From the UHGV virus genome UHGV-0348126: DNA of 35,770 bases, one strand, 5' to 3'. Position numbers and translations under genes: made by a program. The notes under the pieces are model-generated. The model made no database searches. It had not been told where the DNA came from and saw only the letters and a program-made list of their open reading frames with translations. The DNA comes from a virus. Below are positions 24,330-35,770 of this stretch, one piece after another (the first letter of the stretch is position 1; each line of letters opens with the position of its first letter).

Positions 24330-24979
24330 GCCGCCATCTCCCTGACCAGTTTTTCCGCCTGCTGGCGAACCTGCGCCAGAAACGCCTCACCACATGCCTC
24401 AAGTTCATCGCGCCCGATGTAGCTGATTGCCGGTCCCTTCCAGGTCTTGTCGAAAACAGCAATAGCACCAGCGAAGAAAGCGCCTGTCGGCACCTGCTTC
24501 TCGTCCTTCGGTATAAACCAGGCAGGCAGTTCAAAACCAATACGCCCGCGAATAAAAGCAATATGATCTGCATCTTCCGGCCACCACACTTCGCTGGTGG
24601 CCGCTTTGATCAGGAAAACATAGCGCCCGCCCTTATCACGCATGGCACTGGCATGTTTCATGATGTAACGCATGCCGGTGATGTATTGCCCCTCATGCTG
24701 ACTGGCGCGGCTGTATGGGGGATTACCAAAGGCAGCACCTTTAAGCTCCGCAAGACGTTCTGACCAGTCATGCGCCAGCGCGTTATCTTCCGCCGTGTAA
24801 TACGCGGCACATTTGGCGTTATCACCGTCAGTAAACAGATCTAGAACAAACGGGCCAAACAGGGTGTTAATTCCCCAGAAAATGTTGTCCGGCGTGCGCC
24901 ACTGATCGCCCACTTCCTTCAGTTCATGGGCTGGTTTGTTCCGCAGCTCCACCAGCGCCTGGCAATATTTATTACTCAT
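24326..24979 (-). CDS. phage N6-adenine DNA methyltransferase (Dam-like orphan); start at internal ATG 24979
   Basis: Contains the NPPY catalytic motif (AAFGNPPYSRAS); the ATG at 24979 overlaps the upstream gene stop by 1 nt (MSNKYCQ...). Confidence 0.8.
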   Translation of the reverse strand: MSNKYCQALVELRNKPAHELKEVGDQWRTPDNIFWGINTLFGPFVLDLFTDGDNAKCAAYYTAEDNALAHDWSERLAELKGAAFGNPPYSRASQHEGQYITGMRYIMKHASAMRDKGGRYVFLIKAATSEVWWPEDADHIAFIRGRIGFELPAWFIPKDEKQVPTGAFFAGAIAVFDKTWKGPAISYIGRDELEACGEAFLAQVRQQAEKLVREMAA

Positions 24980-25473
24980 TAAGCCCCCACGTAATTCCCT
25001 GACAGATACCACTCTTCACCCGATGCAGCGCGCTTGCTGCTTTTCCGTAAGCACCGCTCACGATGCGCCAGAAAATTGTTTCGTTCTGGCTGGGAGTGGC
25101 TTTCACGGAATGCCTCCATCCACACCGTTGCAGCTCGACGGAATAAGCCCCTGGACTCCAGTTCTTCAGCCTGGCGGATCAGGCACAAAATCACCCGGGG
25201 GTCGTTAGTGCCGACATAGAAATTGCGCACAGGTCTGGTTTCACGAACAGATTGTGGTTCCGGCTCCTGCGCTCTCTCAGTCAGGCGCGGGAAATGTCTG
25301 CGTGTATCTCCTTCACAACGGTGAGCCACACGCCCACTCTGACGTAACTTGCTTGCTGACTGCAGAACGCGCTGCCGTGAGTAACCAGCAAAAGCATCCG
25401 CAATGTCTCCGGAAGTACACCCCGGATGGGCTTCAATGAATTTCTGAACTTCATTCAAAAGACTCACGATCAC
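24979..25473 (-). CDS. hypothetical regulator (possible PerC/ANR-like C-terminal region)
   Basis: 164-aa ORF; C-terminal LESRGLFRRAATVWMEAF is reminiscent of PerC/ANR regulators by memory only; ATGA overlap with the replication gene. Confidence 0.3.
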   Translation of the reverse strand: MIVSLLNEVQKFIEAHPGCTSGDIADAFAGYSRQRVLQSASKLRQSGRVAHRCEGDTRRHFPRLTERAQEPEPQSVRETRPVRNFYVGTNDPRVILCLIRQAEELESRGLFRRAATVWMEAFRESHSQPERNNFLAHRERCLRKSSKRAASGEEWYLSGNYVGA

Positions 25474-26288
25474 CCCCTGAATCCTGCCGGGATCTGGCTG
25501 TAGTCCACGTTGTCGTAACTGGATTTGAAGTACGGGTCCTCACGTCTGGCTGCAGATACCGCAGGAACTTCCCAGGATTCTTCGAAATGACGATCCGGAC
25601 CAAAGAACGTGACAGCCTGTTTCACAAATTGTGTGCCGCTATTGCCCATCGCAGATACCCAGCCCGCGTAGCGTTTCACACCTTCCAGCATGGTTTCGGG
25701 GTTTACTCCCTCATTCAAACGGGCTTTCCAGGCTTTGAAGGCTGCAGATTTTGAATTGCCACCAGCACGTTTGGGGTATGCCAGCCATGTCTGCTCAAAC
25801 TCCGGAGAGTATTCCGGTCGGTTTGAACGAACTCGCACAGACTCATCAGCAGATTCACCAACAGCTATTGGTTCATTGACTGGTTCTTTGACTGATTCAA
25901 AAGAGTGACTGGTTCTGGGTGAATCTCCTGCACTACCCCCTGGTGCAACTCCTGCACTACCTGGTGAATTTGCTGCACCAGATAGTGAATTATTTGCACT
26001 ACCCCCTAGTGAATCTCCTGCACCATCCAGATGAAGGAGATAGATATTACTTGAGTTACCTTTTTCACCTTTCCGGGTGACTTTTTTTACCAGCCCGGAC
26101 TCACAAAGGGCCGCAATATGATTCATCACAGAACGTTTGCTAATCTCGCACTGGTCAGCAATATGCTGGTAGCTGGGCCAGCACTCACCCTGATCACTGG
26201 CATTATCAGCCAGCTTGATCAGAACCAGTTTTCGCAATGGATTACCCACTCGAATTTTCATCGCTTTAACCATCAGCTCCATACTCAT
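25470..26288 (-). CDS. replication initiator (lambda O-like; N-terminal HTH, Gly/Ser/Ala/Pro linker, C-terminal domain)
   Basis: 272-aa ORF; N-terminal winged-helix-like region (RKLVLIKLADNASDQGECWPSYQHIADQCEISKRSVMNHIAALCESGLVKK); the linker GAGDSLGGSANNSLSGAANSPGSAGVAPGGSAGDSP is encoded by the iteron repeats, as in lambda O. Confidence 0.7.
   Translation of the reverse strand: MSMELMVKAMKIRVGNPLRKLVLIKLADNASDQGECWPSYQHIADQCEISKRSVMNHIAALCESGLVKKVTRKGEKGNSSNIYLLHLDGAGDSLGGSANNSLSGAANSPGSAGVAPGGSAGDSPRTSHSFESVKEPVNEPIAVGESADESVRVRSNRPEYSPEFEQTWLAYPKRAGGNSKSAAFKAWKARLNEGVNPETMLEGVKRYAGWVSAMGNSGTQFVKQAVTFFGPDRHFEESWEVPAVSAARREDPYFKSSYDNVDYSQIPAGFRG
25919..26023. repeat. five iteron-like direct repeats (candidate replication origin) inside the initiator gene
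   Basis: Plus-strand 15-mers GTGAATCTCCTGCAC (25919), GTGCAACTCCTGCAC (25943), GTGAATTTGCTGCAC (25964), GTGAATTATTTGCAC (25985), GTGAATCTCCTGCAC (26009); spacing 24/21/21/24 bp; an AT-rich stretch follows at 26030..26060. Confidence 0.6.
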
Positions 26289-26509
26289 GCTGCACCTCCG
26301 AGATGCTTCATGTTTTTTCCGGAGCGAAAGGCTATAAGCGGCATACTGACGCGGTAATTACGGCCCAGCGGTTCACAAACCACCTTCTGACATTCACGGT
26401 CAACCAGGCTAACACGTAGAACATGCCCTGCAGGCGTGGTGTACCACTGACCCGGACGAGGACAACGGAAAGTCTGATTGGTAAAACGTTTGAAAATATT
26501 CCGGATCAT
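26285..26509 (-). CDS. hypothetical protein
   Basis: 74-aa ORF with ATGA overlaps to Rha (upstream) and the replication initiator (downstream). Confidence 0.4.
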   Translation of the reverse strand: MIRNIFKRFTNQTFRCPRPGQWYTTPAGHVLRVSLVDRECQKVVCEPLGRNYRVSMPLIAFRSGKNMKHLGGAA

Positions 26510-27657
26510 TTGCGCCCCCTTACCTCTGAAGGGTTCAGCGACAAATTTATGAGGCAGGCCAGCGCCGAAGCATCATTAATATAGTCATATAAGCTAACAG
26601 CCAGCGGAGATTCGGCTTTTGCCAACATAGGATAAAGCTGCTGCAGCCAGACCTGATGAATTGATGAAATGTAGGAACAGAGAACGCTGGCGTTATGTGC
26701 AACGTCGCTCGGTACAGCGGGCTTTGAAAGCTGTTTCTCCATCTGGTTAAAGGCATTGATGTATGCCTCTTTGAACTGGGCAGCACGTTTACCCGTGAAA
26801 CCCATAGCAAGAAACGCAAAGCCGTCGCGGGTTATTTGATAGCAAGGTAGTTTGCGGCCTGTGCAATCGGTGTAATCACTCACCGAAAAATTGCGGGCAG
26901 TGAATGATGCGGAGCATTCAAGCGTGCGGATCTTTTTCAGTACATCGTCATGACGTTTGGAGAAGAAGTTGGCAACAGCCAGGGATGAAGTAACAGCCTG
27001 ACCATCAACGATGGCAATTTCAGGTTGAGTGAGGGTTGGGATCGTAGCCATGATGGCAGCCTCTTTGGTGATTTTAAATAACTCACCACCAAGGCTTTCC
27101 ACGACCTTATTGGTGGTGAGACGTACAGGGGTGGAAATACCGGTCACCAAAGAACCCGGCCCAACCGAAGTTGGCCCTGCACGCCCCACCATAATTTGGG
27201 CGTAATGCTGCTCATGACACAAAAAAACCGCAAGAGCGCGGTTGTGCGCTTTGGTGAATTCCGGGTTTCCACGCCCGGCACCCGCTTTATAAGGTGCCTG
27301 AACAGTGTAACGTCCCGGAATGGCAGAATCAATGTGCTGGTGGTCCTTCACACTCAACAAAATCACGCCTGAATTTCCACAAAGGACTAAAGCACTCATG
27401 CGGGTAGTCTTTGCGAAGATAGATAACGCGCTGTGTTTCTGGCTCCCAACGAATAACATGAACATAAAGTCCTCTTCCGTCACGAAACCAGCGGTTAAGT
27501 TCCTGCACAACTCGCCCCCCACAGTCAGGTAAAGTTCTCTGTGGTTACTTACAGCCAGGTGATTTGGTAATCTGCATTCATGCCGTAACAACAGGTGTTC
27601 AGCCACGCGGACCACCAGCTGTTGCGACCAACGGTTATTTGCCGTTAAACTGTTCAT
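26506..27657 (-). CDS. Rha-family regulatory protein; Rha-like domain occupies 26506..27051 (alternative start ATG 27051), preceded in frame by a 202-codon extension of unknown function
   Basis: C-terminal 181 aa (MATIPTLTQPEIAIVDGQAVTSSLAVANFFSKRHDDVLKKIRTLE...) recalled as Rha-like, with AAAGAGG RBS 9 nt upstream of ATG 27051; the full ORF start at 27657 overlaps the upstream gene stop as ATGA. Confidence 0.55.
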   Translation of the reverse strand: MNSLTANNRWSQQLVVRVAEHLLLRHECRLPNHLAVSNHRELYLTVGGELCRNLTAGFVTEEDFMFMLFVGSQKHSALSIFAKTTRMSALVLCGNSGVILLSVKDHQHIDSAIPGRYTVQAPYKAGAGRGNPEFTKAHNRALAVFLCHEQHYAQIMVGRAGPTSVGPGSLVTGISTPVRLTTNKVVESLGGELFKITKEAAIMATIPTLTQPEIAIVDGQAVTSSLAVANFFSKRHDDVLKKIRTLECSASFTARNFSVSDYTDCTGRKLPCYQITRDGFAFLAMGFTGKRAAQFKEAYINAFNQMEKQLSKPAVPSDVAHNASVLCSYISSIHQVWLQQLYPMLAKAESPLAVSLYDYINDASALACLINLSLNPSEVRGRK

Positions 27658-28205
27658 GCGTTAGTTTCTCCACAGACACAAAACGCCACGACGCCCGGAG
27701 CTGCACACTCGCGGGCGTCACTCTTTTCTGGAACGCAGAAAATTTTGTAGACCAGTGCCGCATGTTCCTGGAGCTTCGAAATCGACAGATACAACTCATC
27801 ATTAATTGCTGTCTGCTCATGTGGCTCCACTACCCCGTCTTCGATTGCCGAACGAATCTGCTTTGAGTAACTCCCGATCTGTTCAATAACTTCCAGTAGA
27901 CGTTGGTTGATATCAGCGTTCTCTACTTCCTCAATTTCTGGAAGTGATACAAACACCCCACCAGCAGACTGTGCGACAGCATCCGCAATGTGGTGAGTAC
28001 CAGCCGCACGCTGTAAAACCATTGCCCATCCCAACGGAAAAAACTGATCGCCATCGGCACGAAGGCGGTTGAATAAAGCGTTCTCTGTTACATCCAGCCA
28101 CTCAGCAGCTTCAGCGTAACCCCCCGGCAACGCCGCGATAGTTTTTCTGACAGCTTTCACGTACCACTCAGGCTGTTTTTCCACTTTCCAGTGATGCTTA
28201 CCCAC
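27654..28205 (-). CDS. putative CII-like / YdaT-like early regulator
   Basis: 183-aa ORF directly after cro, overlapping its stop; assignment by position and weak recall only. Confidence 0.35.
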   Translation of the reverse strand: MGKHHWKVEKQPEWYVKAVRKTIAALPGGYAEAAEWLDVTENALFNRLRADGDQFFPLGWAMVLQRAAGTHHIADAVAQSAGGVFVSLPEIEEVENADINQRLLEVIEQIGSYSKQIRSAIEDGVVEPHEQTAINDELYLSISKLQEHAALVYKIFCVPEKSDARECAAPGVVAFCVCGETNA

Positions 28206-28458
28206 GGCTTACCTCCTGTTCCTGTGGTTTTAACTCATTCCGGTTTTGACTAGATTGAAAGCGTGCAGGATAGAGAATCTGCATTTCGCTGATTTCTCCC
28301 TTAAAAAAATTGGCCAAACGCTCTGCAAGATCGATAGATGGAATTTGTTCCAGTCTCTCAATACGACTCAGCGTTGCTGGATTAACCTGAACGCCCGCAG
28401 CAACATGCTGCAAAGTAAAGCCGTGCGCCTTACGCACATTTCGTAATGGTGATTGCAT
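28198..28458 (-). CDS. Cro-like repressor (XRE-family HTH)
   Basis: 86-aa ORF divergent from CI; HTH-like LQHVAAGVQVNPATLSRIERLEQIPSIDLAERLANFF; GTGGAGG RBS 5 nt upstream of ATG. Confidence 0.75.
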   Translation of the reverse strand: MQSPLRNVRKAHGFTLQHVAAGVQVNPATLSRIERLEQIPSIDLAERLANFFKGEISEMQILYPARFQSSQNRNELKPQEQEVSRG

Positions 28459-34546: not shown

Positions 34547-35770
34547 TCAGTTTGAATCAGATATAGTACAATTAACAATCGATTCAACCCTCTTCCACCA
34601 TGCCAGGTAAGCTTTACGCTGTTCTTCTAGATAATCGCTCTTATCATAAACTTGCCATACCCCTGGCAGCTTATGACCAAGCATAATTTCTGCGATATGA
34701 GGCGCAGTAAGATCAGAAAAATTTGTTCGAGCTGTACGTCTCAAGTCATGAAGAGACCAATGAGGGAATTGATATCCTAAACGCCGCCATGCGTACTGCA
34801 TTAAATTGTAAGGCAGCGACTGCAATGATGTCCGACCAACGGGTTCCCTGCTTCCTTCCTTAGTAAAAAGCATATCTGAACCATTGTTCATAGAGATAGC
34901 GTACTTTATAAGCTCTTCAACCGGTTCAATAATCGGCCGCTTTAGCGGTTCGCCTGTTATCTCCCCAGTCTTATGTCGTTCTGGTGGTACAGTCCATACT
35001 TTATTAATGAAATCAAAATCGTCCACCCGGGCGGTAATAAGCTCTGAACTACGGCAACCAAAATGCAGCAATAGTTTAATGAAGGCCCGGTATTTAGGAA
35101 CCATTCGAGAACCATCGATCGCAGCATAAAGGATTTTAATTTCATCATGTGTCAGAAACCGTTTCTTCTGACCTTTACGGATATCCATATCTTTACCCGT
35201 GATATCCGACAGCGGGCGAGTTTCAATGAGCTTTCTCTTATACGCCCAGACATGGGCCTGCTTTGCGTTAATTAGCAATCGGTCTGCTATTGCTGGAGTC
35301 TTAGTGCTAAGAGGCTCCAGGACTTCTAACCAATCATGCAATGTAGCTGCATCGTGAGGGATATTCCCGATTTTAGAGAACAGGTGCAGCTCAAACGAGC
35401 GGAGTATCTGTTCAGAACCTTTTTTATTTTTTACACAATATGCTTCATACCAAGCACGGATCACAGACTCTACCGTCATGGCTTCAGTAGCTTTTCGTTT
35501 TTCAGCCTGCTTGACCAATCGTGGATTACGGTTTGACTCGAGTTCACCACGAAGACGGATAACTTCTTCTCTGGCCTCTTTTAATCCAGTTGCCGGGTAA
35601 GTTCCGATATCAAGACGCTCACCTTTCCCTGCCCATTGATAACGATATTGGAACACTACGCGACCTTTCGGTGATACTCTGACAGACAGACCATCACGAT
35701 CGGATTTAACCAAAACCTTATCACGTTCCTTTCCAACGACTGAACGCAACCACGCATCAGACAGCGCCAT
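34547..35770 (-). CDS. tyrosine integrase, P4-type (N-terminal DUF4102-like arm-binding domain)
   Basis: 407-aa ORF; N-terminus MALSDAWLRSVVGKERDKVLVKSDRDGLSVRVSPKGRVVFQYRYQWAGKGERLDIGTYPATGLKEAREE; catalytic region HDLRRTARTN...LGHKLPGVWQVYDKSDY; start codon is the last 3 nt of the window. Confidence 0.9.
   Translation of the reverse strand: MALSDAWLRSVVGKERDKVLVKSDRDGLSVRVSPKGRVVFQYRYQWAGKGERLDIGTYPATGLKEAREEVIRLRGELESNRNPRLVKQAEKRKATEAMTVESVIRAWYEAYCVKNKKGSEQILRSFELHLFSKIGNIPHDAATLHDWLEVLEPLSTKTPAIADRLLINAKQAHVWAYKRKLIETRPLSDITGKDMDIRKGQKKRFLTHDEIKILYAAIDGSRMVPKYRAFIKLLLHFGCRSSELITARVDDFDFINKVWTVPPERHKTGEITGEPLKRPIIEPVEELIKYAISMNNGSDMLFTKEGSREPVGRTSLQSLPYNLMQYAWRRLGYQFPHWSLHDLRRTARTNFSDLTAPHIAEIMLGHKLPGVWQVYDKSDYLEEQRKAYLAWWKRVESIVNCTISDSN

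Follow-up and report, generated by a model that had tools for sequence, protein, structure and literature searches.

The window analyzed here is the whole of UHGV virus genome UHGV-0348126, a 35,770-nt stretch representing an SfV-like Escherichia coli prophage, and the feature in question is an array of five short direct repeats inside its replication initiator gene. We read these repeats as iterons that are bound by the N-terminal domain of the protein whose linker they encode and that, together with an adjoining 38-nt element, probably form the origin of the prophage inside the initiator linker. The presence of the array, a constraint on it that acts at the DNA level, and the co-variation of the repeats with the recognition helix of the protein together lead to the view that they are iterons of the encoded protein. 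Binding, unwinding, helicase recruitment and origin activity are what we infer from these comparative patterns, with origin activity at the array being drawn by analogy with known systems.

The initial annotation had described five 15-bp direct repeats at 21-24 bp spacing within the initiator coding sequence, and the same arrangement was recovered here. The repeats occupy 25919-26023 within the open reading frame (ORF) at 25470..26288 (minus strand), with starts on the plus strand at 25919, 25943, 25964, 25985 and 26009 and start-to-start distances of 24, 21, 21 and 24 bp. They have the form GTG(A/C)A-N5-TGCAC; four copies read GTGAA...TGCAC, and the second, GTGCA...TGCAC, is perfectly palindromic. 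No other match to the pattern GTGMANNNNNTGCAC exists in the 35.8-kb window, where shuffling gives an expectation of 0.38 matches and none of 100 shuffles reaches 6. A looser family-wide pattern returns the same five sites only, and Tandem Repeats Finder reports the array with a period of 24 and 4.6 copies. Extended by its flanks, each unit becomes an imperfect palindrome of 19 bp, T-R-GTGMA-N5-TKCAC-Y-A, equal in size to a lambda iteron (PMC7466680). Counting away from the N-terminal domain, iteron 1 lies at 26007..26025 (core 26009-26023; minus strand TGGTGCAGGAGATTCACTA, a 19-bp imperfect palindrome), iteron 2 at 25983..26001 (core 25985-25999; minus strand GTGCAAATAATTCAC), iteron 3 at 25962..25980 (core 25964-25978; minus strand GTGCAGCAAATTCAC), iteron 4 at 25941..25959 (core 25943-25957; GTGCAGGAGTTGCAC, with perfect palindromic half-sites that match on both strands) and iteron 5 at 25917..25935 (core 25919-25933), which directly abuts the 38-nt element. 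The array corresponds to gene nt 265-369 (aa 89-123) and encodes GAGDSLGGSANNSLSGAANSPGSAGVAPGGSAGDSP, a segment that AlphaFold leaves disordered between a winged-helix domain (residues 1-86) and a helical C-terminal domain, in keeping with its earlier description as a linker between two domains. There is no DnaA box near the array, the only match in the window being at 35429, and no other iteron-like array was found in the window.

Two further observations concern the surroundings of the repeats. The 9-nt spacers that give the 24-bp spacing (25934-25942 and 26000-26008 in the window) always include five consecutive G or five consecutive C (TAGGGGGTA, CAGGGGGTG, CACCCCCTA), and the spacer before the last iteron takes this G/C-run form in nearly all inspected loci (L002-L081), across iteron classes. 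A degenerate, inverted sixth repeat at 25844-25858 (12 of 15 positions; minus strand GTGAATCTGCTGATG), 20 nt beyond the 10-mers of the element, was considered and set aside as a chance match; it is absent from relatives with the same C-terminal type (L002).

Eighty relatives of the gene were fetched from one-genome-per-species contigs with protein patterns from outside the linker. The motif GTG[AC]A-N5-T[GT]CAC is present in 3-7 copies at gene nt ~265-430 in 42 of the 80 and never in the 6-kb flanks, the hosts of these 42 being Pseudomonas, Aeromonas, Shewanella, Marinomonas, Marinobacter, Microbulbifer, Halomonadaceae and several enterobacteria. Spacing among relatives stays at 21-24 bp, and many loci combine 23 and 22 bp, which shifts the reading frame of one repeat; such frame-shifted repeats encode VVQEIHQG where the others encode AGDSP. 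Across a diverged set of 23 loci differing by >15% in N-terminal coding DNA, the 101 repeats encode 66 different hexapeptides, and 11 of the 101 are read in another frame. Conservation extends to positions outside the search pattern (T at -1, 88%; purine at 0, 100%; pyrimidine at +16, 96%), and the GCA and TCA codons of the repeats are kept in Pseudomonas loci of ~0.60 GC. At the level of alleles, half-sites are polymorphic at 2 of 50 positions and spacers at 9 of 30 among 61 closely related E. coli/Shigella sequences (Fisher p = 0.0018), a sign of recent purifying selection. The comparison shows a constraint on the repeats that acts on DNA, not on protein. To this extent the dual-coding and cis-acting arrangement proposed in the initial annotation holds up, the motif being kept while the peptide changes and the repeats co-varying with the recognition helix.

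The 38 relatives without the GTGMA motif carry other repeats at the same place, and the sequence of these repeats follows that of the recognition helix, which in the window initiator spans about aa 47-60 (CEISKRSVMNHI). Across 81 of 81 loci there is a one-to-one match between six helix types and six repeat consensus sequences. Helices of the form (S/G/T)(K/R)R(S/T/A)(V/A)(M/I/V)xH, e.g., SKRSVMNH, go with GTGMA-N5-TKCAC; (G/A/S)RSTVKxH with GGGGC(A/G)...(G/A)(A/C)CCC; DRSTVR(K/R)H with GTAGGC-N7-(G/C)(C/T)AC; SKRS(V/A)MRH with GTGAC-N5-GTCAC; and CSKS(A/T)VRxH with TGCC-N7-GGCA, while GRSTVRKH, seen at one locus, has the sixth repeat type. Such co-variation, which is what binding sites for the encoded N-terminal domain would show, supports specific binding indirectly and, with the constraint on DNA, strongly supports a reading of the repeats as iterons. 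Six helix/iteron pairs on one scaffold also provide a natural table of use for studying DNA recognition by winged-helix domains.

The last repeat is immediately followed by a 38-nt family-invariant element (25881..25918, minus strand CCAGAACCAGTCACTCTTTTGAATCAGTCAAAGAACCA, encoding PRTSHSFESVKEP), beyond which the sequences of relatives diverge completely. Its consensus is CCAGAACCAGTCACTCTTyTGAAyCAGTCAwnGAACC and its peptide (P)RTSHSFEPVxEP. A strict pattern finds one copy per locus in 77 of 81 loci, with close variants in the remaining four and none in the flanks. Codon choice in the element is fixed (Arg AGA; Ser AGT, then TCT; Glu GAA), with AGA, AGT and TCT at 100%, and the modal-codon fraction is 0.94-1.0 compared with 0.55 at invariant residues of the N-terminal domain, where all synonymous codons are used. 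Per-base conservation is >=0.9, and third positions score 0.86 vs 0.42 just downstream. The element is near-identical across phages of E. coli, Pseudomonas, Shewanella and Vibrio in which neighboring synonymous sites are saturated. It is built of 2-4 copies of GAAYCAGTCA with 17- and 12-nt spacing in two reading frames (RTSH and EPVx); in the window these direct repeats lie at 25906-25915, 25889-25898 and 25877-25886, with a partial copy at 25865-25874, and such 10-mers have a background frequency of 0.03 per stretch of equal length. When viral contigs were scanned for the exact pattern, at least 120 stretches with the element were returned. Among the matches listed, 80 stretches were readable, and 71 of these have the GECWPS signature; the other nine are CFPS variants, contig-end or disrupted copies, in which the readable upstream peptide matches the initiator family. 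By codon usage and third-position conservation, what is conserved in the element is the DNA rather than the peptide, and it is unusually conserved DNA, independent of iteron specificity or C-terminal domain.

After the element, relatives carry ~30 C-terminal sequence types as defined by k-mer clusters. Some share an F(E/D)xFWxxYPxK motif, most are unrecognized by Pfam, and one is Phg_2220_C. A search with residues 1-140 against 1.84 billion representative proteins gave 198 clusters (50% identity) at E <= 1e-30, a number that rises to 908 at E <= 1e-10, and most alignments stop at residues 136-140, the end of the element. This suggests a fixed cassette of winged helix, iterons and 38-nt element that is joined to exchangeable, putatively partner-recruiting domains, a pattern that would be expected of an origin-specificity module followed by a helicase-recruitment module. 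Lambda O is classically divided in a similar way, its N-terminal half being specific for the origin and its C-terminal half for P. Phg_2220_C is itself the C-terminal domain of lambda O (PMC5509034).

Where the DNA opens is the part of the origin reading on which a competing view survives best. The initial annotation had reported an AT-rich stretch following the repeats. The stretch exists (26024..26064), but in the direction of the gene it precedes the repeats, on the N-terminal side, where it codes the wing of the winged-helix domain (NSSNIYLLHLDG). The region could be an origin as proposed and yet open at 26024-26064, with the 38-nt element binding a host factor or acting as a peptide motif. 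We regard this as unlikely, though with evidence on its side: of all 25-mers in the gene, the one at 26040-26064 has the lowest stability (-26.3 kcal/mol, the mean being -33.7) and falls in the 98th percentile of the window, the same flank is of low stability in 80% of 45 diverged loci, and an unwinding element may need low stability only and not a fixed sequence. However, all synonymous codons are used in this flank across the family, with no constraint on its DNA sequence, and its AT-richness may simply follow from a peptide rich in N, K, Y, S and I. It also lies on the side opposite to the AT-rich region of lambda. Over the 45 diverged loci, the two flanks are of about the same low stability (z 1.88 on the element side vs 1.91 on the N-terminal side), so that the opening site is not decided by duplex stability; the element side is in addition sequence-invariant and made of tandem 10-mers like known unwinding elements. 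The element is therefore favored, by its position, its tandem repeats and its conservation, as the better candidate for an unwinding or helicase-loading site, and its specific role as an unwinding element is a guess.

A different possibility is that the repeats do bind the encoded protein and serve regulation, whether autorepression, a transcription roadblock, copy control or exclusion of related phages, with the origin elsewhere. Each site is palindromic, of the kind used by dimeric repressors, and Rep dimers of iteron plasmids bring about autorepression by binding inverted repeats. Protein bound within the coding region would hinder transcription of the initiator gene and of everything downstream, and the co-variation with the helix is evidence of binding-site behavior, not of origin function. 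By the account of the authors of the 'Eru' classification, nothing is known about the replication proteins of these phages (PMC8951638). Against a purely regulatory role stand the lack of a second iteron-like array in the window and of a DnaA box near this one, and a position and order that match ori-lambda. The array also always occurs with the invariant element and a swappable C-terminal domain, and sometimes with an adjacent helicase gene, a combination more in keeping with an origin module than with an operator. On balance we find regulation alone improbable.

Still harder to sustain is the view that the repeats and the 38-nt element are a recombination 'linker' for module shuffling, kept by repeated exchange and not by replication. 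The element does sit exactly at the junction between the N-terminal module and the ~30 C-terminal types, and mosaic alleles switch partners at it (e.g., P0065 and P0072). Exchange offers no explanation for repeats that change with the recognition helix, nor can it account for near-perfect identity over 38 nt across phages of E. coli, Pseudomonas, Shewanella and Vibrio beside saturated synonymous sites, and a role at the junction is compatible with one in the origin; we consider this explanation very improbable. Least credible of all is that the repeats have no cis function and are slippage-prone, low-complexity coding sequence for a flexible Gly/Ser/Ala/Pro linker, which would suit the spacings in multiples of three in the window, the low-complexity, disordered peptide and the variation of unit number between alleles, but is contradicted by a motif that persists through 66 hexapeptides, two reading frames and 22- and 23-bp spacings, retains its GCA/TCA codons in Pseudomonas loci of ~0.60 GC, changes together with the recognition helix and is less polymorphic in its half-sites than in its spacers.

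Several points weigh against an origin made of iterons and element. The helix classes and repeat patterns were drawn by eye on the same loci on which the pairing was tested, which is partly circular. A pattern-free test, in which the 19-mer adjacent to the element recurs 2.64x in its own upstream 150 nt, 1.88x in other loci of the same class and 0.13x in loci of a different class, reduces this circularity without removing it. With a mean GC of 0.41, compared with 0.53 for the loci, the element is only moderately AT-rich and no classical AT tract, and the gene has a less stable segment in the window. No sequence homology of the window protein to lambda O was detectable, and we found no published experiment on any member of this initiator family. 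Finally, the number of linker repeats in E. coli/Shigella alleles (P0001-P0042) varies from ~1 to ~9 units and by itself accounts for lengths of 242 to 302 aa; a 250-aa form with two units, for instance, occurs in 64 contigs, and one of 294 aa has 22 additional residues. Common in E. coli are alleles with no more than two repeats (250 aa) or a single one (242 aa); either a small number of iterons suffices or the prophages concerned are defective. Function may be retained in these alleles, because two lambda iterons beside the AT-rich tract suffice in vitro (PMC7466680). The variation itself resembles the difference between lambda, with four iterons, and Stx phages, with six, where extra iterons add residues to the protein (PMC7466680).

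If the repeats and the element do form the origin, replication could proceed as follows. Induction would lead to transcription from the cro-side early promoter and to synthesis of the initiator. Each 19-bp imperfect palindrome would hold one dimer of the N-terminal winged-helix domain, and four to five dimers would load at sites about two helical turns apart, on the same face of the DNA, to give an O-some-like nucleoprotein complex. Strain from this complex would open flanking DNA, the favored site being the invariant GAAYCAGTCA element on the C-terminal side. The C-terminal domain, with its DnaT-like tail, would then bring in host DnaB/DnaC or primosome machinery, a host source being proposed because the prophage encodes no helicase or loader. 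More tentatively, and with more doubt than belief, we raise the idea that the element is a new sequence-specific origin element, read as single-stranded DNA for unwinding or helicase loading, within a modular origin cassette that in this phage would hijack the host restart primosome. Its reader would then be the invariant part of the initiator N-terminal domain (looping back, as proposed for plasmid Rep) or a gammaproteobacteria-wide host factor. If true, the element, the six helix/iteron pairs and the DnaT-like tail would define a cassette that lets phages swap helicase-recruitment domains freely.

The initiator (272 aa) matches the Pfam family PF13730 HTH_36 (1.8e-11, 44.1 bits against a cut-off of 25) and PHROG 270 'replication initiation protein' (5.2e-88 over residues 3-271); the label of replication initiator given by these databases is by similarity only. 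The N-terminal domain (aa 1-86; 26031..26288, minus strand) is modeled by AlphaFold2 with pLDDT 69-91 as helices 3-11, 17-28, 40-47 and 51-64 followed by a beta hairpin at 67-85, and it is the only winged-helix domain predicted in the protein. Its Foldseek matches are winged-helix DNA binders, DnaD-N (2v79) and a plasmid Rep-DNA complex (5kbj) among them, and a weak DnaD_N signal (3.6e-5) is under the Pfam cut-off. Linker residues 92-156 are predicted to be disordered (pLDDT 30-48). The C-terminal domain (aa 158-272; 25473..25817, minus strand), with three predicted helices at 162-214, is presumed to recruit host helicase machinery. Its last nine residues, SQIPAGFRG (aa 264-272; 25473-25499, minus strand), are identical at 8 of 9 positions to the DnaT C-terminus SQIPPGFRG (aa 171-179), and a second C-terminal domain type among relatives (L013/L045) likewise ends in IPAGFRG. 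This match is a clue to the host partner of the domain, and the tail may be mimicry of the host DnaT tail by a phage that lacks a helicase or loader of its own. Beyond these nine residues, phmmer and profile searches of the PDB found no homology of the C-terminal domain to DnaT or to solved structures.

The 819-nt gene has a 100% identical copy in a chromosomal prophage of E. coli AR_0055 and counterparts of 98% identity in phages SfV (orf39), mEp460, cdtI, ST64B, many Stx2c phages and Stx2a_WGPS2. Matches were found in 2,709 of 5,426 complete E. coli genomes, 897 of the 5,426 having full-length copies. The annotated neighborhood amounts to a complete temperate phage, with genes for an integrase, cI-like, cro-like and YmfL/cII-like proteins, Rha/Ash, the initiator, a PerC-family yfdN product, a Dam-type methylase, a LexA-like protein, RusA, an antiterminator, lysis functions, an HK97-type head and a sheathed tail. 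The initiator is its sole replication gene ('initiator-solo'), and no helicase, loader or primase gene was found in the prophage or near the initiator. Upstream, all on the minus strand, lie the cro-like gene (28198-28458), the cII/YmfL-like gene (27654-28205) and a 383-aa fusion of Ash (PF10554) and Rha (PF09669) at 26506-27657. A 74-aa ORF of PHROG 1153 with no assigned function (26285-26509) overlaps both neighbors by 4 nt. A 164-aa PerC/ANR-family, yfdN-like regulator (24979-25473, minus strand) overlaps the initiator stop codon and occupies the position of the lambda helicase loader P. Placement of the initiator in the early operon, downstream of cro/cII-type regulators, is as expected for an ori-in-O architecture. 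Between 25400 and 26600 there is no internal promoter on either strand, and one terminator-like hairpin was found there, the number expected by chance; a search of Rfam gave only a chance miRNA-like match (E = 0.066). The hairpin, with its T-run, lies at 26065-26089 (plus strand, TCACCTTTCCGGGTGA CTTTTTTTAC), antisense to the initiator within the region coding for the winged helix.

The initiator module is also carried by several PLSDB 'plasmids' of 38-54 kb (from E. coli, Salmonella, Klebsiella, Shewanella, Microbulbifer and many Arsenophonus), which are probably circular phage genomes or phage-plasmids. One such record, NZ_CP148393.1 (L285; 44.6 kb, circular), holds a lambdoid phage genome that is complete and includes an integrase; its only recognizable replication gene is a window-type initiator, which speaks in favor of the origin reading. 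These records were ruled out as proof of origin function, being phage-sized circular records and not minimal replicons.

An origin within its initiator gene is a design already known, and textbook for lambda, which leaves concepts unchanged; what is added is an initiator family without a described origin. In the full texts consulted, no description of the repeats or of an origin was found for SfV, ST64B, phi24B, Min27 or cdtI, with an earlier mention possible in the SfV genome paper or in the Weigel & Seitz 2006 review. The array offers a concrete, testable candidate origin for very common temperate phages (SfV, ST64B, Stx2c phages, 'Eru6' Stx2a phages and phi24B), and replication of Stx phages affects toxin output.

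Among known systems, Bacillus phage SPP1 (G38P/oriL) and DnaD-like replisome organizers provide a precedent in that the initiator binds repeats inside its own gene. The window protein shares with them the in-gene repeats and has a DnaD_N-like signal and the 2v79 fold match, and it differs in family, host range and repeat structure, the DnaD-type similarity resting on a sub-threshold match. Iteron plasmids (RK2 TrfA, F RepE, R6K pi and pPS10 RepA) likewise have winged-helix initiators and direct initiator sites at about two-turn spacing beside an unwinding region of short tandem repeats. Their iterons, however, are found in an intergenic oriV and not in the rep gene, usually bind monomers and come with DnaA boxes, and their Rep proteins have two winged-helix domains, whereas here palindromes lie in-gene, a single winged-helix domain is predicted and the only DnaA-box match is the distant one at 35429, so that the locus does not class with iteron plasmids. 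A plasmid initiator has been proposed to contact one strand of its opened element (PMC10602881), and this could serve as a model for the invariant 10-mers.

Closer relatives are found among Stx phages. The window gene is 98.2% identical to that of Stx2a_WGPS2 (AP012537), the Eru6 reference, which has the same Rha/Ash gene before it (PMC8951638), and the layout of the window is that of Eru6, with the Rha+Ash protein at 26506-27657 and then the HTH_36 protein at 25470-26288, on the cro side of cI; no stx gene was found among those looked for in the window. In phi24B and Min27 the corresponding gene is O, and the phi24B 'O' has an N-terminal module 66% identical to that of the window and the same 38-nt element. 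There the module is coupled to a primase-helicase 'P', unlike in the window phage, which has no helicase gene. As observed in its record (L162, HM208303, 3001-3777), the phi24B 'O' gene holds three perfect GGGGCAGGAGCTGCCCC palindromes, then the element, and is followed by 'P'. The phi24B O and P were named by position only in the genome paper (PMC3430580), and the Eru6 and phi24B papers classify the genes and do not describe an origin.

Read directly, lambda O contains four annotated 18-bp iterons at nt 349-433, with start-to-start distances of 20, 24 and 23 bp, followed on the C-terminal side by an A-rich tract. Both systems have imperfect palindromes of 18-19 bp in the middle of the initiator gene, spaced at 20-24 bp, coding for a linker and flanked on the C-terminal side by a further element (PMC7466680), and in both the initiator gene lies in an early rightward operon after cro/cII. 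The likeness to ori-lambda put forward in the initial annotation stands as to the order of N-terminal domain, iterons, flank and C-terminal domain, provided that the lambda tract is equated with the 38-nt element; the AT-rich stretch that it named is on the opposite side. The systems differ in protein family (PF04492 in lambda vs PF13730 here), in iteron sequence, in the flank (a 40-bp AT-rich tract vs a sequence-invariant 38-nt element of ~41% GC) and in the next gene (a P-type loader vs a PerC-family regulator). The description of the protein as O-like is accordingly sound for its architecture and not for family membership: the window protein gives no match to PF04492 at E <= 0.01, where lambda O itself scores 5.7e-36, and hhalign of the family alignment against lambda O returned a probability of 1.4%, with a shallow profile (Neff 1.6). 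An HTH_36-like N-terminus has been reported in lambda O by HHpred (PMC5509034), which makes remote homology to the window protein possible. On present alignments, the window protein is O-like in architecture and not a demonstrable member of the O family.

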